Shown: one piece after another, positions 13,743 through 64,000 of the stretch
Layout: every line of letters begins with the position of its first letter
Position numbering within the stretch: the stretch's first letter is position 1
DNA from: Promethearchaeota archaeon
GTDB lineage: Archaea > Asgardarchaeota > Heimdallarchaeia > Hodarchaeales > Hodarchaeaceae
DNA length: 64,000 nt
Assembly (NCBI GenBank): GCA_048938105.1
Contig: JBHLMN010000003.1
Location: 1 to 64,000 of the forward strand
Direction of reading: 5' to 3'
Translations under genes and position numbers: made by a program
The notes under the pieces: generated by a model
The model's input: the letters and a program-made list of their open reading frames with translations, nothing else
What the model was told of the DNA's origin: nothing
The model's database searches: none

Positions 13743-15197
13743 TTACGAAGTTTGATCACCCCAATTAAAAGTACCGAGTATATCAAAACTCCATGGAGCA
13801 TAAGAGTCTGGGCCAATATAATAAGAAGATAAACAATTTGGATAAGTGCTAGAAAGAGACGTTAAGCTGTATATGAACCTATTTGTCCAGAAGGGTGGTA
13901 TGTTTACCTGACCAATCAATATTCTACTGCTTTTATTATAATAAACATTTAGATATGTGAAAAATTTCAGATGTTCAAGAACACTCATCACTCCTCCTCC
14001 ATGAGTGGGATCTAAGCTACGGATACAAAAATAAATCCAAGATCCAAGACCGAGGTTTGAAAATATTGGAAAACGAAATATGATGCGATTCCTTAATAAT
14101 TTCCTCACATCTAAAGTTACATAAGCTCTACTGATCTTTAATTGTTTTGCAAGAAACTCCTCTTCCATCGTTGATAATTTATGAATTAAATCTAGAAGTT
14201 TACCTTGACGATATGTTAATGGAAATGGATCATAAAACGGATCTAGATTGAACTCAACACCAGTTTCTCCCAGAATTAGCTTTGTATTCCAATTTCCACC
14301 TTCTCGCAAAATTGGGGGAAGCAATTTCCATCTCTCATTTGGATTCTGTGTCAAACCTGAAAAATTCCATCCACAATTTTGCTTTTTTATGATAACCTTT
14401 TCTGTAGGATTAAAGAATTTTAAAATTTTATTATAGATTACTGTGTCATTAAACGGGCATTGAAAGATCGTTGTGTATTTATCATGAGGAGTCAAGGGAA
14501 AAAACATAACAACATATGGTTGAATATGCTTTGGTATCTCTGTTCTTTCTTTTTTATGAAAAATCAGAATTGTTTGATAACCAATGCGGGCCATATCAAC
14601 CAAGTAAATGGTACTCAAGATCTGGTGTAGAATTAAGTAGTCTAAACGGCTAGAGACGGTCCTTGCATCACGACGTATTCCATAAGCTAATTCTTTCACT
14701 TTAGGGTATCTATCCAATGATTTCGAAAATCCGTGTTGTGCGAGTTTTTGAAGGATCTGCAAATCACTATTTATCAACCTAATGTTTAGATCCTCATAAA
14801 GAGATATCAAACTCCTCTCTAAAGATTCGTTCGAAGGATCCTCTCTTAAACGAGAAAGTAATATATTATCAGGTTTTATTGCTTCATAAAGAATAAGTTG
14901 TTTAGGTAGTAATATTGCATCTCCCTTAAAATGGAGTGTAATTGAAGAAAAATTTTTTATATACGATTGAATCCATGAAAATATTCCTAATTGATTCCAT
15001 TTGTCATAGAGGGGGATTGTAAGGGTTTTTAACATATTTTGAGATATATCCTTCCATTTTCTCCAATGAACAACAGACTTTCTCTCAGGTCTTACAATTC
15101 TCTTCACATTCTCCCAATATTCTATAAAATCGTTAATAAAGTTAGGTGGCAATCTTAAACTAATCAATTCAGATGAATTTTCCATGTTTCGCTCCAT
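13743..15197 (-). CDS. Tandem Lrp/AsnC-type wHTH transcription regulator with N-terminal extension
   Basis: Two HTH-Lrp units (KELAYGIRRDARTVSSRLDYL...VDMARIG; FLAKQLKISRAYV...FSNLGLG). Start is uncertain (15233, 15197 or 15185). Confidence 0.7.
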   Translation of the reverse strand: MERNMENSSELISLRLPPNFINDFIEYWENVKRIVRPERKSVVHWRKWKDISQNMLKTLTIPLYDKWNQLGIFSWIQSYIKNFSSITLHFKGDAILLPKQLILYEAIKPDNILLSRLREDPSNESLERSLISLYEDLNIRLINSDLQILQKLAQHGFSKSLDRYPKVKELAYGIRRDARTVSSRLDYLILHQILSTIYLVDMARIGYQTILIFHKKERTEIPKHIQPYVVMFFPLTPHDKYTTIFQCPFNDTVIYNKILKFFNPTEKVIIKKQNCGWNFSGLTQNPNERWKLLPPILREGGNWNTKLILGETGVEFNLDPFYDPFPLTYRQGKLLDLIHKLSTMEEEFLAKQLKISRAYVTLDVRKLLRNRIIFRFPIFSNLGLGSWIYFCIRSLDPTHGGGVMSVLEHLKFFTYLNVYYNKSSRILIGQVNIPPFWTNRFIYSLTSLSSTYPNCLSSYYIGPDSYAPWSFDILGTFNWGDQTS

Positions 15198-15222
15198 AAC
15201 TAGACTTCCTTTCATTATATAG

Positions 15223-15246
15223 AAAAATCGCATAGCAAAAATCGCA
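15223..15246. promoter_or_regulatory. Direct repeat AAAAATCGCA x2, possible operator in the divergent promoter
   Basis: Copies at 15223-15232 and 15237-15246. Confidence 0.35.
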
Positions 15247-15345
15247 ATGTTTTGTGTTATTTTTTCTTCCTATTAACTTCATTAAGATTTCTAAATCAAT
15301 ATTTTCGTGTTGCTTTCTCCTCAATAACATTGGAGGATAATAACA

Positions 15346-15504
15346 TTGTGGAATAAATTCCGTGAGCGACTAGAAAATTATAAGCCAACTAGAAATTCTA
15401 TATTAAAAATAGTTCCTTTAGTTGTTTTCTTAACTATCTTTTTATTAAGGATATCTTTAGGAATGGCTGACCCTAATGGTGTGCCTCCTGGACCTAAACC
15501 CTAA
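15346..15504 (+). CDS. Small secreted peptide precursor, 52 aa (not in ORF track)
   Basis: GGAGG at 15332-15336, TTG start. Translation MWNKFRERLENYKPTRNSILKIVPLVVFLTIFLLRISLGMADPNGVPPGPKP: basic n-region, hydrophobic h-region, G-M-A cleavage-like site. Confidence 0.72.
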   Translation: MWNKFRERLENYKPTRNSILKIVPLVVFLTIFLLRISLGMADPNGVPPGPKP

Positions 15505-15527
15505 AATGATATGGGTAACAAAGATAT

Positions 15528-15543
15528 CCCTTTTTTTTTTCTT
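15528..15543 (+). terminator. Oligo-T tract after the peptide gene
   Basis: ccc-T10-ctt about 25 nt after the stop; typical archaeal intrinsic terminator. Confidence 0.5.
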
Positions 15544-15558
15544 ATGGAAGATTGTGAA

Positions 15559-15885
15559 ATGGTAAAGAAAAGCATACTACAGACTCATGATTCTCAGATG
15601 AATGCTGTTCTCCTAGTAACACTCATATCACCTGTTTTCCTAGGAGACTACGAACTTCAAGAAGATGGGCTACATTGTTTCTTCATTCAATCAATCGATC
15701 ATATTCAGAAAATGATAAAAACCTTCCTCAACGCTTTATATGAGATTACAAATCAGCAATTTTACTTTGAAATAATTAATGATCATGAGGCTATTCTAAA
15801 GATTTATGGAGAAAAAAAATTACAATTTTCTCAAGATATACTGTTCAGATCAACAGTTTCATCACAGAAGAGGGAGCTATTATGA
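15559..15885 (+). CDS. Hypothetical protein
   Basis: ORF 15511-15885. The start is probably 15544 or 15559, after the T tract. The stop overlaps the next start (ATGA). Confidence 0.55.
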   Translation: MVKKSILQTHDSQMNAVLLVTLISPVFLGDYELQEDGLHCFFIQSIDHIQKMIKTFLNALYEITNQQFYFEIINDHEAILKIYGEKKLQFSQDILFRSTVSSQKRELL

Positions 15886-16322
15886 TTCGGAGTGTATTTA
15901 TAATTCATGAATCAGGATTATGTTTATTCTCACGTGCCTACAGGGAAAATTCAAAGAATATTGATCTATTCAGTGGCTTGTTATTTGCAGTTTCTAGCTT
16001 TGCTAAAAATATGATTGGTGAAAAAATCAATGAAATAAAGACGGAACATCATAACATCTACTACGAATCAAAAAAAACAATAGTTATCGCCCTGGTAACA
16101 TCAAAGAAGAAAATCACAAAACGGAAATTGACTATGATTATGAGGAGAATTTCCAATAACTTTGTCCAACAATACGAAGAGTATCTAAAACTTGCAATCA
16201 TTGAACCTCAAATATTTGAAAGCTTTTCGACAACAATAGATAAAATCTTCCAATCTAGTGACTTAATCAAAATACATTACCCTCTAGAAAAGGAGAAAGT
16301 CATTTCAGGCATTCATCAGTAA
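15882..16322 (+). CDS. Longin-like domain protein (Asgard type)
   Basis: MIRSVFIIHESGLCLFSR...LFSGLLFAVSSFA...FESFSTTIDKI matches the sedlin/sigma/Fuz longin pattern. Confidence 0.78.
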   Translation: MIRSVFIIHESGLCLFSRAYRENSKNIDLFSGLLFAVSSFAKNMIGEKINEIKTEHHNIYYESKKTIVIALVTSKKKITKRKLTMIMRRISNNFVQQYEEYLKLAIIEPQIFESFSTTIDKIFQSSDLIKIHYPLEKEKVISGIHQ

Positions 16323-16363: not shown

Positions 16364-17245
16364 TTGATGAAGCAATCCGCAAAACCGAATCCTATCGGCA
16401 CAAAACCATTTGATTCATTTGTAATTCTGTCATCTAATGATCACTCTCTTTTATTCTTCACACAGTCTTTTGCTCAACTTAGTGGTTTTCATCCCTCTAT
16501 TGTACCATCATTAATCCCTATACCAAACATTTGGGTACAAAATCTTGATATCCAACGCCGAGTACCATTTGACCAGTATGAGATTTATCAATTCAAACAG
16601 AGAACGTCTTTATGCTATGAAAATCTTTGGGTAGAGACCATGATTCATGAATTACGGACTGCATCGTTGACCATCGATCTTGGGGCGCATGTGTTAGTAG
16701 AAAACGATCAGTCAGCACCATATATTCTTCAAAAGCTATTACGAGCTTCCCATCGTCAAAAAATATCAACACTTATCGCATCAGATTTTCTTCAGTTATT
16801 GATATCACCACCCTCAATTTACTCTATTTCTTTAACAAAGATACTAATTAGTGGTCTATCCCACTGTCCAGTAGCACCCTTAAAATTCCATCTGGCTTCT
16901 TCTATCGAAACAAACTTTTTAGGGCATATTAATCCAATCATTTGGGGAAATTTCCATTTCTTAGCTAATTTCTTCACCACCTTTTTCTCTTGGCTTGGGA
17001 TGGAATGTGTCACCTTAGAAATGGAGATTATTAATCCCGTCTCTGTTTTAGTAAGTTTAGACATACCCCCCACTCATTCTTTATCACATATTCAAGGATT
17101 TTCCTTAATACCTCATTATTTACATTATATTACGGCATACTTCAATGGCCGTGCTTGGATGACCCAGAGTTCAGTAAAAATTCTTTTTCCATTGGTCTTA
17201 TCAACCCTTAATTCGGATAGTAACTTTAAACACTCAGAAAGTTAG
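16364..17245 (+). CDS. Degenerate sensor histidine kinase-like protein (PAS remnant, H-box, eroded HATPase)
   Basis: DSFVILSS...FTQSFAQLSGF is PAS-like; H-box MIHELRT; no intact N/G1/G2 boxes; ends in FNGRAW...ILFPL. Confidence 0.55.
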   Translation: MMKQSAKPNPIGTKPFDSFVILSSNDHSLLFFTQSFAQLSGFHPSIVPSLIPIPNIWVQNLDIQRRVPFDQYEIYQFKQRTSLCYENLWVETMIHELRTASLTIDLGAHVLVENDQSAPYILQKLLRASHRQKISTLIASDFLQLLISPPSIYSISLTKILISGLSHCPVAPLKFHLASSIETNFLGHINPIIWGNFHFLANFFTTFFSWLGMECVTLEMEIINPVSVLVSLDIPPTHSLSHIQGFSLIPHYLHYITAYFNGRAWMTQSSVKILFPLVLSTLNSDSNFKHSES

Positions 17246-58076: not shown

Positions 58077-61000
58077 TTAGTTTAATTTGTTTTCAGACTT
58101 CTGAGGGGAGTCTACACGTGAGTTCTTAAGTGTTAATATAGATTTTCTGGATTCTTCGTATGGGCTTGGGATAAATCTATGACTTTGATTATGAAATTGC
58201 ACTATTTGATACATTATTAATAATAAGAAAAAACTAATTTCAAAAACTGATAATATTAAGAAAATCACAGGATTAAGAGCTAAATGTGAAAAGGGAGAAA
58301 CCTCACTAAAAAGAAAAGAAGTAGATTCTGTAATCGCTTTAGATGGGGTTTGAAAAAGGAAAAATAAAGATATTTGTATTAAAGCATGAATCAAGATCAG
58401 TCCAATGAATTTAATCTGTCCTCTTGACCCAATTTTTCTCACCCAAATGATTTGCTGGCTGAAATCTAGGCTTGGACTGATCCCACGAAAGACAAGAAAA
58501 CTCCACATTTTCTGAAGGAGGATGACTTCTACGCCTATGATTGCTAAAGAAAGTAGAAAGTAGAATAAAAAAAAAGAGGTACTATAAGATAAACTGATAA
58601 TCATAAGTGAAAAAGGAGCAATAACAGTTATAAGAAGAGCTAACAAAGAAAACGGAGTAACCAAGCAAATAAATGCCCCAAAAATGCCCCAAATGAAACT
58701 TTTTATCAGATGAAGTATTAAATTGTCTGGGAGAGAGTCGTAGGCAAAATAATAAGTAATAGGACTAATAATAGCCAAACCAAGAATGAATAGAAAAGGA
58801 TTAATAAGAAGAAAAGTATCTGGATAGTTTTCTCCGAAATAGAGCCTAATCGGTAAGACATATAGAGATATTCTCCAAAAAAAGTCAAAAGGATTCAATC
58901 CACGAATAATAATATAACCATCGAATAAGTAATTAAAAGTAATTACTACCATTAGCATTAGAAATATGGCTTGAATTTGATGATTATGATCCTTTATAAA
59001 TTTCCACAACGAAGTAGAGGGTGAGGATAAAGCCATTTTCATTTCTTCAGGAATTGTGAGTGATTTCTTATGAAAATTGTCAATATGTAATATGGTATCG
59101 AGTTTTTTCTGATAAAGGTAATATGAATGTGGATGGGATGGTTTTTCGATATATTGACGTCTGATGGGTCGCCCAGAAATAGTGTTAACAACATTTTTCC
59201 TACTAGAACGATATGAAACTACAATTGTACTGATTATTGTAACCAAAAAAGAAAAAAGAACCCACATGGCAATTCTTTCAAGTGGAAACTCAACACTTAC
59301 TGGGATAGAGAGACTTATATACCAAGCCAATAAAACTGCTCCGAATAAGCCATCAAGCGTGCCAATAAAAAGACCTGTTAAACCTAGAGCGATCGATTCT
59401 GACATAAAAATATTAAATACTCCCCGCTTGTTCAATCCTAATGCACGCATAATACCTATTTCTCGTTCCATACGTAAAGTAGAAACAAGAATACATATGA
59501 ATTGAGCTATCGCCGCTAGGATAAATGATTCGATAAATAAGATTTGGAAAATTGCAGATTGGAAACTTAAACTTCTTTCAATTGCTTGTGCATAGAAGTC
59601 TATTGCAGTGACTTCTTTGAATTGAGGAAAATTATGTTCAATCATTGCTTGAGCAGAACTGACATCTCCATCTACATCACACAGAAACCACTTAGCAAGA
59701 GTTGAATTAAAGAATTCTTGGAACCGTTGAGTAGAGATATAGAGGTACTCACCATTCCCAAGAAATACATTTGATTTAATCACAGCAGCGATTGTTACGT
59801 TGACAGTTCTATTATCAGCAGCTTTAATTGTGACATTTGAACCAATGGGCGTAAGAAGCTTTTGAAAAAGAAGGTTTGACACTAATCCATATGTTTTATT
59901 TGTAGAATAGCTCCCCTGCTTCTCATAAAGGAAAAGGAAAGAAGAATAAGTGTAATTATACATTGGTTGAATGGTTTTCTCTGCAAAATATGCGTACCTA
60001 AGAGGATCTACTCCATAAACATAACTAGCAACTCCTTGAACCTCCGTACGCTCTTCTTGGATGAATGATGACTTAAGTATAGGTATACTCCCATCTAGTG
60101 TGTTTGTAAGATTAATGTCTGGGAGTTGACCATCTCTAGCTTCCGCAACTAAATCAATTTTTCCCCACTGTTCCTGAAAATAAACAGGAACAGCTGAAAT
60201 AGCTGCTGCTGACACTAATCCTACAACAATAATAAATGTAAGTGCTAACGCAGAAGTCACAATTGTAAGAAGTGATTTCTGGAATTCTCTTGCAATATTT
60301 CGCATTGAGATAGTTCGTGTAATAACCCCGAAAATGGGGGCAAGGAATTTAAACGCTATTCTCGGTAAGAAGATAAGAATGCCGATCTCTACTAATAAAG
60401 TCCCGAGAAAGATTAATAATACTACAAGAAAGTGTATAGATAAAATCTCAAAGTCAAGAAAGCGAGTAGGGCCAACAAATAATTGTAATATTAAGCCTGT
60501 GAGTGCAAGAAGACCCCCCATGAGTACATTATACTTCCAATATGTAACGAAATTAATAGACGACTTTCCACTCCTCATACGTGAATGAATGTTTTGTACT
60601 ACAGGCATCGAAAGAGCAATAAAAATTGGATACAAACCAGAAATTAAAGATACAATGATTCCAGAAGAAAATGTCGCAAAGAGGGAAGTAGGATGCAAAG
60701 AAAGAGTCTTCACCTTCAAAGTTGGATAGAAATACTGCATTCTCCAAATGAGTAAGATAGCAAACCCGATACCAAAAATCATTCCAAACGAACTTCCAAT
60801 AAGAGAATAAATCAAAATCTCTATCGTAATAGCGATGATGAGCTGCCTAGAATCAGTCCCCACAGATCGAAGTACTCCGATCTCTTTTGAGCGATCACGA
60901 ATCGTTATGGCCAGGATGTTTGTTATAAAAAGAAACTCAACAACGAATGAAGCAAGAATCACTAGGTTCATAGCTGTTTGATATGCACGGATTCCAGATG

Positions 61001-61829
61001 CATCAATGTCAGATATTACTTTTTCAGCCCAAACATAAAATTCGATACCAAGGGTATCTTCTATTTTTTCACTTATTTTTTGAATATTTAGCAGATCCGC
61101 AACAGAAACATCAATTTTGGGCCTTAATATATTCGGTTTTTCAGCGTTTGGGACAATATCAAATAATGTCTCAATATTGATCAAGATGAAAAGGTAACCG
61201 ATATTATTCCCGAAAAATGAAGGATCGTTAATAAGCCCACTTATTCTGAATGTTCTCGATTCCAGATCTACATTAAAATCCCTAGTGTCAATTGAATCAC
61301 CAACTCGTAAACCAGAAGCGAAAGAAAGCCATTGAGAAACAATGACATTGTTACCAGAAAGTAAAGGTTCACCCTTGGTAATATTAAGCTTGGAAAAGTC
61401 AGGATGAGTTTTGGGATCAATGCCATAAATCAAAATGCTAGTATTTGGAAACTCATCCATAATAATTTGATCAAAGGGAAGATGATAAACAGGACTTGCT
61501 TTAGTGACACCTGCGACAGAATTGACATCGTTCGCAATTGCACGTAAAGAGGATAAACCAGTCCACTTCTTCGGAATGACCGAGATGTCAGTATAATTTT
61601 GGTTTCGATTATTAAATATAAAATCATCGTATAATGTATCCACTGAAACAACAATACCTGTTTCTAAAGCGATTGTCAAAAATATACCAATAATTAACAG
61701 TGTACTACGATACTCTGATCGTGTGACATTTATTTTTGCTAATCTAAAAGAAAAACCTAGTTGTCTTAATCTAGTTCCAAGTGTGTTACTTAGAAACAGT
61801 CTTAGAGACGACACATGTGTTCTTTTCAT
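58077..61829 (-). CDS. FtsX/MacB-like ABC permease with an extra C-terminal multi-TM domain
   Basis: RSKEIGVLRSVG and REIGIMRALG FtsX motifs; ~350 additional, mostly hydrophobic residues. Confidence 0.85.
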   Translation of the reverse strand: MKRTHVSSLRLFLSNTLGTRLRQLGFSFRLAKINVTRSEYRSTLLIIGIFLTIALETGIVVSVDTLYDDFIFNNRNQNYTDISVIPKKWTGLSSLRAIANDVNSVAGVTKASPVYHLPFDQIIMDEFPNTSILIYGIDPKTHPDFSKLNITKGEPLLSGNNVIVSQWLSFASGLRVGDSIDTRDFNVDLESRTFRISGLINDPSFFGNNIGYLFILINIETLFDIVPNAEKPNILRPKIDVSVADLLNIQKISEKIEDTLGIEFYVWAEKVISDIDASGIRAYQTAMNLVILASFVVEFLFITNILAITIRDRSKEIGVLRSVGTDSRQLIIAITIEILIYSLIGSSFGMIFGIGFAILLIWRMQYFYPTLKVKTLSLHPTSLFATFSSGIIVSLISGLYPIFIALSMPVVQNIHSRMRSGKSSINFVTYWKYNVLMGGLLALTGLILQLFVGPTRFLDFEILSIHFLVVLLIFLGTLLVEIGILIFLPRIAFKFLAPIFGVITRTISMRNIAREFQKSLLTIVTSALALTFIIVVGLVSAAAISAVPVYFQEQWGKIDLVAEARDGQLPDINLTNTLDGSIPILKSSFIQEERTEVQGVASYVYGVDPLRYAYFAEKTIQPMYNYTYSSFLFLYEKQGSYSTNKTYGLVSNLLFQKLLTPIGSNVTIKAADNRTVNVTIAAVIKSNVFLGNGEYLYISTQRFQEFFNSTLAKWFLCDVDGDVSSAQAMIEHNFPQFKEVTAIDFYAQAIERSLSFQSAIFQILFIESFILAAIAQFICILVSTLRMEREIGIMRALGLNKRGVFNIFMSESIALGLTGLFIGTLDGLFGAVLLAWYISLSIPVSVEFPLERIAMWVLFSFLVTIISTIVVSYRSSRKNVVNTISGRPIRRQYIEKPSHPHSYYLYQKKLDTILHIDNFHKKSLTIPEEMKMALSSPSTSLWKFIKDHNHQIQAIFLMLMVVITFNYLFDGYIIIRGLNPFDFFWRISLYVLPIRLYFGENYPDTFLLINPFLFILGLAIISPITYYFAYDSLPDNLILHLIKSFIWGIFGAFICLVTPFSLLALLITVIAPFSLMIISLSYSTSFFLFYFLLSLAIIGVEVILLQKMWSFLVFRGISPSLDFSQQIIWVRKIGSRGQIKFIGLILIHALIQISLFFLFQTPSKAITESTSFLFSEVSPFSHLALNPVIFLILSVFEISFFLLLIMYQIVQFHNQSHRFIPSPYEESRKSILTLKNSRVDSPQKSENKLN

Positions 61830-62582
61830 TAGTGATAGTTCACTCTCAGATGGACAATATAATTGTTAATACTTCTCGAGAGACAATTTTAAAACTTTCT
61901 TAAGGTGCATTCGAAACTCTCAATAGTTTCTTATCTTTTAACGACTTTTTACCTCCTAGAGTCATGATTAACTTGGATATTTGTTGAGGAGAAATTTAGG
62001 GTCATTATACACCAAATTAAAACTTTTAAAAGATTTAAAGATAGAAACTGTAAAAGCAAATTCTTTACTTGATTTTGGGACACATTTAATCTAAGAATCT
62101 TTTGATTAAGAGAATTATGATAAATTTGGTTTCTTTTAATTAAGCTATTACTAAAAAACGGAGAGGAAAGATAGTAAAGAATTTATTACAGATAATCTCC
62201 TTAAAGTAACTGATATATTAACAAAAAAAATGTAATTACTAAAAAACTGTATTAGACAAGAGAGATGTCTTTTCACTAAAACTCTTCCGTTCCACCGTTG
62301 TATTGTGAATCAGTAGAGGATCAATATAAAGAAAAGAATTGGTATTATTAATGAAATAAGAAGAATCCTCGAGTTCAATTCGGTTAATTATAAAAACCTG
62401 TGAATTATAATAACAAGAATACAAGTTGACTCTCTAAAGAGTCTTCTTATAAAAACATCAAAACAAGAAACCCGTCATTAAATCCTAATTTAAAAATAAC
62501 TCTAGAGAATTTATTCGTAAGTTAAATATCCCCCGAGGAAGGTTTATTTAAAATGTATGAACTAGAAGTATTGCGTACGTAT

Positions 62583-64000
62583 ATGAAAAATGCTAAAATT
62601 ACTCCCCGAAGAATATTACAAGTCTCTTTTGGAATTATAATATTGCTGATTGTTGCTAGCAACTCAATATCCGCGGTAGCTTATCGATCGGAAATAAGTC
62701 AAGCTGTGGAAGAACAATCACAGAGGTTAATCTATACCTATTCACCTGATGACCGTATTGGAATTCTATATGGAGGAAATGATCCAGTCATCGCAGGAAC
62801 AGCGGTCTCACTATTTACCTCATTACGAATTGTCTATACCTCCATTGATCTAATACCAGTCTCTAGTTTGGATGAAATTGAAGAACTTTCATTATTTCAG
62901 TATAATATTCTCATCTATGTCTTTGAGAGCTCAACAGATGGAGTAATTATAGGAGAAACAGTCACTTGGAAGGATTTTGTTACATTCCTAACGGCTCATC
63001 CAGAACTTGACCATGTCCTCGGCATGGGAAATACCAACAACTTGTACCGATACTTACCCGTATCCCAAACAAATGTCTGGATAGAGGGTTCAGATGTTCT
63101 AGATGCAGAACTAGTGTATTTGTGGTGCATCTGGTCTGTAGCTGATATTTTAGAGACTAAAAATTCAGAATATTCGGAATACCATAAAGCAGGTATTAAT
63201 ATCCGTAAATTAAGCCTAAAGTGGTTTGCTGATAATATTGGTTCCATTGTGGAGCGGAATTTATCCCCAAAAGATCCAATGGGCGAGGAGGATCTAAAGC
63301 TTAAGCAAGAAAAATATGATAAAATGAAAGAAAGATTTCCAGCAGAGATAAAACCAAAGTTTGATATTCGTGAATTACCAGAAGAAAATAGGCCTGCTAT
63401 GTACATTAAGAAATCAACGGAAGAACCTCTAGGAGTGGGAGATCTTTTAATTGGATTACTTCCCCTTGATTCTGGCCTACAAGGACCTATAGGAGGAATT
63501 CTTGATATTTTGTTAGAAATATTCATCGCTATGGTTGGGGATGAGATCCAGATCTCTGAAGACTCTATGGATATGATTGAAACTGCATTCAAAGCGATTG
63601 AAGCTTTATTAGGCTTCTTTGGAGGAGGAGATATTTCTGTTGAATCAGCTCTTCATACATTGTTTGAAATACTTGAAGACATGATACCCTTTTCAGAGGA
63701 TCTGAAACCATATGTCAACCTACTTATTGACGCCATTCCTCTCCTCAGAGGAGATTTCTCCGCGATAAGTGATATTATTGGCCGTTTACTTGACTTGGTG
63801 ATTCCTGAGAGTTGGTCATGGTTTAAGGATCTTATTAAAGAAATACTTGCCCTTTCTGTAGAAGTAATTGATACAATGCACGAAGAAGGAGGGAATTTTC
63901 TCGATACTTTGCTTTCTGTTGTTTGTGAACGATATTTAGACATATTAATAGATAAATTCTTTGAACTCATTGGTGTTGATGTAGGAGAATATATTACTGG
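62583..64000 (+). CDS. Large secreted protein, N-terminal part (runs off window; not in ORF track)
   Basis: ATG at 62583 (alternative 62553); MKNAKITPRRILQVSFGIIILLIVASNSISAVA signal peptide; no stop before 64000. Confidence 0.85.
   Translation, partial: MKNAKITPRRILQVSFGIIILLIVASNSISAVAYRSEISQAVEEQSQRLIYTYSPDDRIGILYGGNDPVIAGTAVSLFTSLRIVYTSIDLIPVSSLDEIEELSLFQYNILIYVFESSTDGVIIGETVTWKDFVTFLTAHPELDHVLGMGNTNNLYRYLPVSQTNVWIEGSDVLDAELVYLWCIWSVADILETKNSEYSEYHKAGINIRKLSLKWFADNIGSIVERNLSPKDPMGEEDLKLKQEKYDKMKERFPAEIKPKFDIRELPEENRPAMYIKKSTEEPLGVGDLLIGLLPLDSGLQGPIGGILDILLEIFIAMVGDEIQISEDSMDMIETAFKAIEALLGFFGGGDISVESALHTLFEILEDMIPFSEDLKPYVNLLIDAIPLLRGDFSAISDIIGRLLDLVIPESWSWFKDLIKEILALSVEVIDTMHEEGGNFLDTLLSVVCERYLDILIDKFFELIGVDVGEYIT

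Follow-up and report, generated by a model that had tools for sequence, protein, structure and literature searches.

A propeptide gene paired with a divergent tandem Lrp/AsnC regulator in Hodarchaeales: a candidate peptide signalling cassette

A 52-codon open reading frame in a genome of the family Hodarchaeaceae is a real gene under purifying selection, and together with a divergently transcribed regulator it forms a propeptide-regulator cassette that is real, undescribed and spread throughout the order Hodarchaeales. As an archaeal peptide signalling circuit it is a credible candidate. The gene lies in a window of 64,000 nt (the whole stretch analysed, positions 1 to 64,000 of contig JBHLMN010000003.1), which belongs to a genome of 5.85 Mb with 35% GC. 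A topical literature search, with incomplete coverage, found no description of the cassette. The features discussed below, in coordinates of the window, are the following.

13743 to 15233, minus strand: divergent regulator, a helical N-domain followed by two Lrp/AsnC wHTH-RAM units (homology, fold search, structure model)
15268 to 15293, plus strand: conserved intergenic element with the core CTTCATTAA (comparison of close orthologues)
15332 to 15336, plus strand: Shine-Dalgarno sequence GGAGG, with a spacer of 9 nt to the TTG
15346 to 15504, plus strand: precursor gene, 52 aa, TTG start (homology search, genus profile, dN/dS)
15346 to 15408, plus strand: basic n-region, residues 1-21, ending at K21 of a K-x-x-P motif (alignment)
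15409 to 15447, plus strand: hydrophobic h-region, residues 22-34 (hydrophobicity, alignment)
15448 to 15468, plus strand: small-residue c-region, residues 35-41, with a candidate cut after A41 and an alternative after G39
15469 to 15501, plus strand: Pro/Gly-rich tail of 11 aa, candidate mature signal
15511 to 15885, plus strand: ~108-aa protein, likely start at 15559 (locus maps, fold search)
15531 to 15540, plus strand: T10 run, a possible leaky archaeal terminator past the peptide gene and ahead of its downstream neighbour
15882 to 16322, plus strand: longin-like protein (Pfam Fuz_longin_1, E 2e-4, below the cut-off)
16364 to 17245, plus strand: 293-aa PAS/histidine-kinase-like protein (conserved H-box)

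The frame, its TTG start and the GGAGG with its 9-nt spacer are present as the preliminary description of this DNA had claimed, and the closest orthologues likewise have GGAGG or GAGG ahead of the start codon. A Pfam scan of the precursor gave no match. The gene had been called unannotated, which applies to this copy, since its exact protein is absent from a collection of 15 billion gene calls, whereas its orthologues are on record as hypothetical proteins. Two other cues from the same description exist but contribute little. The T10 run is one of just two runs of at least ten T on the plus strand of the window, but its terminator-like look adds nothing independent: runs of at least six T occur in 12 of the 53 homologues, and a hairpin terminator in front of it was considered and dropped, as folding gave no stable hairpin there (z +1.2). 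The GC-richer patch (58% vs 28%) is also there, but it coincides with the Pro/Gly codons and thus offers no independent evidence. In most close orthologues of this clade the CTTCATTAA element lies 78-90 nt 5' of the peptide start; it is a probable promoter or operator.

A search with the single query retrieved open frames of similar length in relatives, with E values down to 5e-14, and a profile search detected one to seven copies per genome in 19 of the genus's 20 other genomes; elsewhere in the class, across 61 genomes, the profile matches were weak, and mostly interrupted or embedded. Precursor length ranges from 43 to 56 aa across 53 homologues. For the whole frame, dN/dS by the Nei-Gojobori method (few sequences per clade, synonymous sites partly saturated) was 0.43 in the clade of this gene and 0.13-0.34 in six other clades, hence below 1 in all seven clades computed. 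The search for orthologues with dN/dS, which had been proposed as a check on the gene, therefore came out in its favour. The frame is short, starts with TTG and was missed by gene finders, as might be expected of a chance ORF inside a divergent promoter region, but this explanation was ruled out by conservation and retains a negligible probability: more than 50 homologous frames are open, the ratios are below 1, ribosome-binding sites are conserved and homologues are annotated.

The basic n-region, the hydrophobic core, the G39-M40-A41 triplet and the Pro/Gly-rich tail of 11 aa, all recognized at first sight, are in the sequence, and the family alignment supports a layout in which most of the precursor would be export signal. 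The n-region has a net charge of +4 and the best 12-residue hydrophobicity mean is 3.0. Among the 53 homologues, position 21 is Lys or Arg in 96% and position 24 is Pro in 87%; apart from this proline, positions 22-34 are hydrophobic. Small residues occupy position 39 in 96% and position 41 in 98%, with a variable position 40 between them, the span from K21 to A41 measures 21 residues in 50 of the 53, and the tails range from 9 to 15 aa. Export through Sec with cleavage by signal peptidase I calls for a basic n-region, an h-region of 12-15 aa, small residues at -3 and -1 and no Pro at +1, and both candidate sites of this copy agree with this pattern.

The 11-aa product proposed earlier is thus plausible, as the site between A41 and D42 obeys the -3/-1 rule, but its exact ends are uncertain, because the site between G39 and M40, yielding 13 aa, fits too and because seven of the 53 homologues have Pro at +1 after position 41. 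Proline at +1 blocks bacterial signal peptidase I (PMC4704075), and its presence in these homologues speaks against position 41 as the cut site of every member. Cleavage after G39 would suit most of the seven, as well as this copy, so that the mature product may be 11 or 13 aa, or the protein may be left uncut. In the pair formed by genomes G004 and G017 the 12-aa tail is identical at a pS of 0.67, while the leader has a pN of 0.25; another clade combines a nearly neutral tail (dN/dS 0.8) with a strongly conserved leader (0.13).

The preliminary description had overlooked the gene on the opposite strand. Its longest frame encodes 496 aa, and the NCBI call, starting at 15185, 480 aa. The predicted structure, a confident one (pLDDT 88), consists of a helical N-domain followed by alpha/beta residues ~140-479, in which a wHTH and then a RAM domain occur twice. 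Its best whole-chain fold match was the siroheme decarboxylase NirDL / AhbAB (4ch7, 4czc; E 9e-9, Z 14, rmsd 4.2), with 268 residues aligned at ~11-12% identity. Single Lrp/AsnC proteins were also matched (PH0061 2dbb, LrpA 1i1g and AsnC 2cg4), with a Foldseek probability of 1.0 and a VIA Z of 6-7.5 per unit. Both HTH units retain basic Lrp-type motifs, and the regulator is a Lrp-like DNA-binding protein. For the ~125-aa N-domain no usable fold match was obtained, the only hit being saposin-like (Z 5.8). Each of the 20 genomes searched in the genus has the regulator, and the sister family gave weak matches; in the rest of the 399 genomes of the phylum, with the best four candidates per genome considered, there were faint partial relatives only. 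Four distant relatives of 540-570 aa from other Asgard families had no divergent peptide gene in the stretches examined.

The regulator and the precursor travel together. In the first 22 loci a ~480-aa gene stood head-to-head with the small gene in 20, at a distance of ~100-170 nt, and directly upstream on the same strand in one more. Counted from the regulator, 55 of 71 copies adjoin a peptide gene (53 head-to-head and two in tandem); four of the remaining copies are at contig ends and 12 have no peptide gene, eight of these orphans being extra copies in arrays beside a complete cassette. As a background, a profile-free rule derived from the peptides places a peptide-like gene beside 6 of 2034 (0.3%) other large genes of this genome. 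The two regulators encoded here each have one of the genome's two peptide genes as partner. In the sister family, three regulators likewise stand opposite a peptide gene, which in two cases was recognized by eye, indicating that the pairing spans the whole order.

The second cassette of this genome (L074:1106-2835, equivalent to G000 C28:21602-23337) encodes a 50-aa precursor with a different type of tail, ending in Asp; at a distance it has a gene of the 108-aa family and three small genes of no assigned function. Tandem regulator arrays are present at L045, L049, L051 and L063, and regulator matches reach 11 in genome G019 and nine in G001, exceeding the number of peptide genes. In genomes G013 and G002 (L046, L048) the peptide gene is identical and the regulator nearly so, with the other cassettes far apart, which may reflect a recent transfer or a binning artefact. 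The sister genomes G016 and G001 have two long conserved non-coding stretches upstream of peptide-free regulators, one with 89% identity over 516 nt (L073:2005-2520 and L051:11401-11916) and the other with 82% over 630 nt (L068:2201-2830 and L069:3390-4017); Rfam gave no match in these stretches, and nothing in nine loci scanned.

Tail type sorts with regulator clade, a pattern that linkage alone could produce. One regulator subtype (at least 44% identity to the query) and its peptide subtype (E <5e-7) share the same five genomes out of 21. In the sister genomes G001 and G016 this pair is split between contigs whose flanks are unrelated, with both genes intact; the separation is a single evolutionary event, seen in two sister genomes. 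G001 also holds a second copy of the separated peptide, with a diverged leader and the same tail. Regulator-free peptide genes at L079:4225-4377, L080:4279-4431 and L051:17788-17979 share one tail, and are found in the two genomes with orphan regulators of the matching subtype. Among the same genomes, the regulator and three downstream genes have identities of 57-68%, versus 72-91% for their neighbours. Tail distance showed no consistent tracking of the RAM domains across clades. A correlation of tail distance with the first HTH (partial rho 0.38) was put down to ancestry because it vanished within clades. Prediction of a complex between regulator residues 12-483 and precursor residues 23-52 gave 0.02, 0.41 and 0.02 in three runs, with controls not folded, and these values count neither for nor against binding.

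Within this half of the family, each of the 22 loci has the ~108-aa gene directly downstream of the peptide gene, either in one sense-strand tandem or head-to-head; in eight other loci the ~108-aa gene is 300-700 nt away, and overall it is present in 31 of 53 loci and missing from 22, whereas the regulator is there. Its product gave no Pfam match and no PqqD/RRE match, and fold searches reached a Z of about 5 (ArgR C-terminal domain, H-NOX) with a TM of about 0.5. The longin-like gene occurs in a subset of loci only. In the 293-aa protein, the H-box HELRT is kept in 11 of 12 homologues. At loci L032, L040, L038, L039 and L071 the peptide or 108-aa gene is followed by other content: clusters judged by eye to be PAS/kinase-like, genes of ~1000 aa together with ABC ATPases, or one small gene resembling a GTPase.

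In the other half of the family, a TCTAGA-N7-TCCG motif precedes 25 of 29 cassettes, often just past a TATA-like box. In this genome 28 of the 51 top matches to it are intergenic, with 22% expected and 2-10 obtained from shuffled matrices; by eye, the genes behind them include several with signal peptides, one TFB-like and one histone-like, and may form a regulon of the second regulator. The motif is absent on either strand upstream of the genes of the clade described here (shuffle p 0.1-1.0), and an inverted copy at this locus was rejected on the same values. Elsewhere in the window (62501-64000) a strong site is located 52 nt ahead of a very large gene, a 2213-aa frame whose start resembles a signal peptide and whose first 482 aa have no Pfam match. 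Positions 58077-61829 (minus strand) encode a membrane protein of 1250 aa, which by eye resembles an ABC permease.

Among known systems the closest in logic are the RRNPP pairs of Bacillota and their phages, including Rap-Phr, NprR-NprX, PlcR-PapR, Rgg-SHP, PrgX and AimR-AimP, which are defined by a propeptide of 10-100 aa, its Sec secretion and maturation, a receptor of 250-500 aa, TPR repeats in that receptor and gene adjacency (PMC10075063). Three of these five features are found here: the propeptide length, a candidate receptor of ~480-496 aa, and adjacency in 55 of 71 copies. For secretion, the n/h/c anatomy and the -3/-1 pattern are present, with Pro at +1 in seven of 53 homologues. No TPR family was detected in 22 members of the regulator family, the model being double-Lrp, and the cassette is therefore not a member of RRNPP. 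Both systems place a small Sec-type propeptide gene beside an intracellular protein of 250-500 aa, here with DNA-binding domains, and have several paralogous pairs per genome with differing tails; unlike RRNPP, the partner here is a tandem Lrp/AsnC protein with a helical N-domain, the host is an archaeon, the tails are Pro/Gly-rich and the function is a candidate one. With the Lrp/AsnC feast-famine regulators the partner shares the wHTH and RAM fold, but it has two fused units, an added N-domain and a dedicated micro-gene partner. The fused double-Lrp architecture is that of NirDL / AhbAB, but identity is low, no haem-biosynthesis genes were noticed near the regulator, and the structural match reflects architecture, not demonstrated catalysis. 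Described archaeal quorum sensing, which the cassette may resemble in being density-linked, comprises the carboxy-AHL of Methanosaeta and a disk-forming signal of Haloferax, small molecules or signals of no assigned identity, and the same source lists no archaeal peptide signal that is encoded by a gene and has a receptor (PMC12240190).

The suggestion of a pheromone- or hormone-like signal thus gains a candidate receptor in the divergent regulator. We give an even chance to a circuit, read from sequence, in which an exported propeptide releases a short tail that is re-imported and sensed by the regulator, following RRNPP logic with a non-TPR receptor. The precursor would enter the Sec pathway, and archaeal signal peptidase would cut after A41 or G39 and free a Pro-rich peptide of 11-13 aa. 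Resistant to common peptidases, this peptide would build up outside and come back through oligopeptide ABC importers, then bind the paired regulator, a built-in Lrp pseudo-dimer. The regulator would in turn alter transcription from the shared divergent promoter, the targets being its own gene, the peptide gene and, further along, those for the 108-aa, longin and kinase-like proteins, and paralogous pairs with unlike tails would act as separate channels.

Several lines of evidence favour this signalling circuit: the frequency of pairing over background, its recurrence within this genome and into the sister family, the sorting of tail type by clade with a subtype pair that co-occurs and persists after separation, the two cases of constant tails with changing leaders, and the faster divergence of the regulator and downstream genes relative to their neighbours. 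The small residues at 39 and 41 point the same way, as do an archaeal signal peptidase I encoded at C11:95603-96067 and 31 matches to family-5 peptide-binding proteins in the genome, and a regulator resembling an amino-acid-sensing family (PMC2995911). Against it stand the +1 prolines, the lack of tracking between tails and RAM domains with one near-neutral tail, and the Lrp ligands in PMC2995911, which are amino acids or small metabolites, all non-peptide. Physical linkage by itself gives genes a common history, the separation counts as one event, and signal peptidase and importers are generic. The 21-residue span with small residues at 35/39 and 37/41 would also suit a transmembrane helix.

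This last point supports an uncleaved single-pass membrane microprotein, N-in with the Pro-rich tail out, as the first gene of a Lrp-controlled operon, with a membrane partner, or the 108-aa and kinase-like proteins, as its target. MgrB-type kinase modulators are the model for such a role. The near-constant span, the small-xxx-small faces, a K-x-x-P conserved beyond what is usual for signal peptides, the +1 prolines, the 108-aa gene that follows in 31 loci and the longer hydrophobic stretches of sister-family versions all agree with it. However, the strongly hydrophobic core covers just ~13 residues, and the Ser/Thr/Gly/Ala-rich stretch after it is what a c-region typically shows; tails stay constant under changing leaders in two cases; the regulator is present in the 22 loci that lack the 108-aa gene; and the peptide subtype remains with its regulator subtype after separation. 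We consider the microprotein less likely than the signalling circuit, but a serious rival to it. Less probable still is a signal with another route or receiver, released by an intramembrane protease with part of the c-region, or sensed through the 108-aa and PAS/kinase-like proteins while the Lrp protein merely controls peptide expression. Eep releases SHP and enterococcal pheromones by such a cut, which would sidestep the +1 proline, and the genome has several M50 site-2 proteases and a downstream kinase-like gene with an intact H-box; in one clade of the family, moreover, the leader is more conserved than the tail. On the other hand, the small -3/-1 pattern is a requirement of signal peptidase I, and the kinase-like and 108-aa genes are absent from many loci in which the regulator is nearly always found. 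The precursor had also been proposed to encode a modified peptide, and a RiPP (post-translationally modified peptide) or an archaeocin-like antimicrobial would account for a conserved leader with a variable core and for a regulator whose best structural match is an enzyme of the same tandem-Lrp fold. In cluster maps, and in Pfam scans that covered part of the neighbours, genes for radical SAM, YcaO or lanthionine enzymes or for a dedicated exporter were not seen among the conserved neighbours; with no modifying enzyme seen to travel with the gene, the idea is unsupported. The lack of a PqqD/RRE match in the 108-aa protein, mostly Pro/Gly tails with no shared modifiable residue and the basic motifs kept in both HTH units also speak against it, making it highly improbable.

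Hodarchaeales have the largest heimdallarchaeial genomes and have been placed as sister to eukaryotes (PMC10307638), and cell-cell signalling in archaea is barely known, the known cases relying on small molecules or on signals of no assigned identity (PMC12240190). Were the product an uncleaved microprotein, the result would still be an undescribed, order-wide regulator-microprotein cassette. Our tentative proposal, which we hold at somewhat less than even, is that Hodarchaeales evolved multi-channel secreted-peptide communication independently of bacteria, with a fused double-Lrp receptor and longin and kinase-like outputs. If the signalling circuit is real, its signal and receptor are defined and could be tested without culturing, using synthetic 11-13-mers, recombinant regulator and the 160-bp promoter at 15186-15345. 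Archaea would then have their first gene-encoded peptide signal with a cognate receptor, and the Lrp family, in this regulator, its first peptide-sensing protein, extending Lrp ligands from amino acids to peptides.
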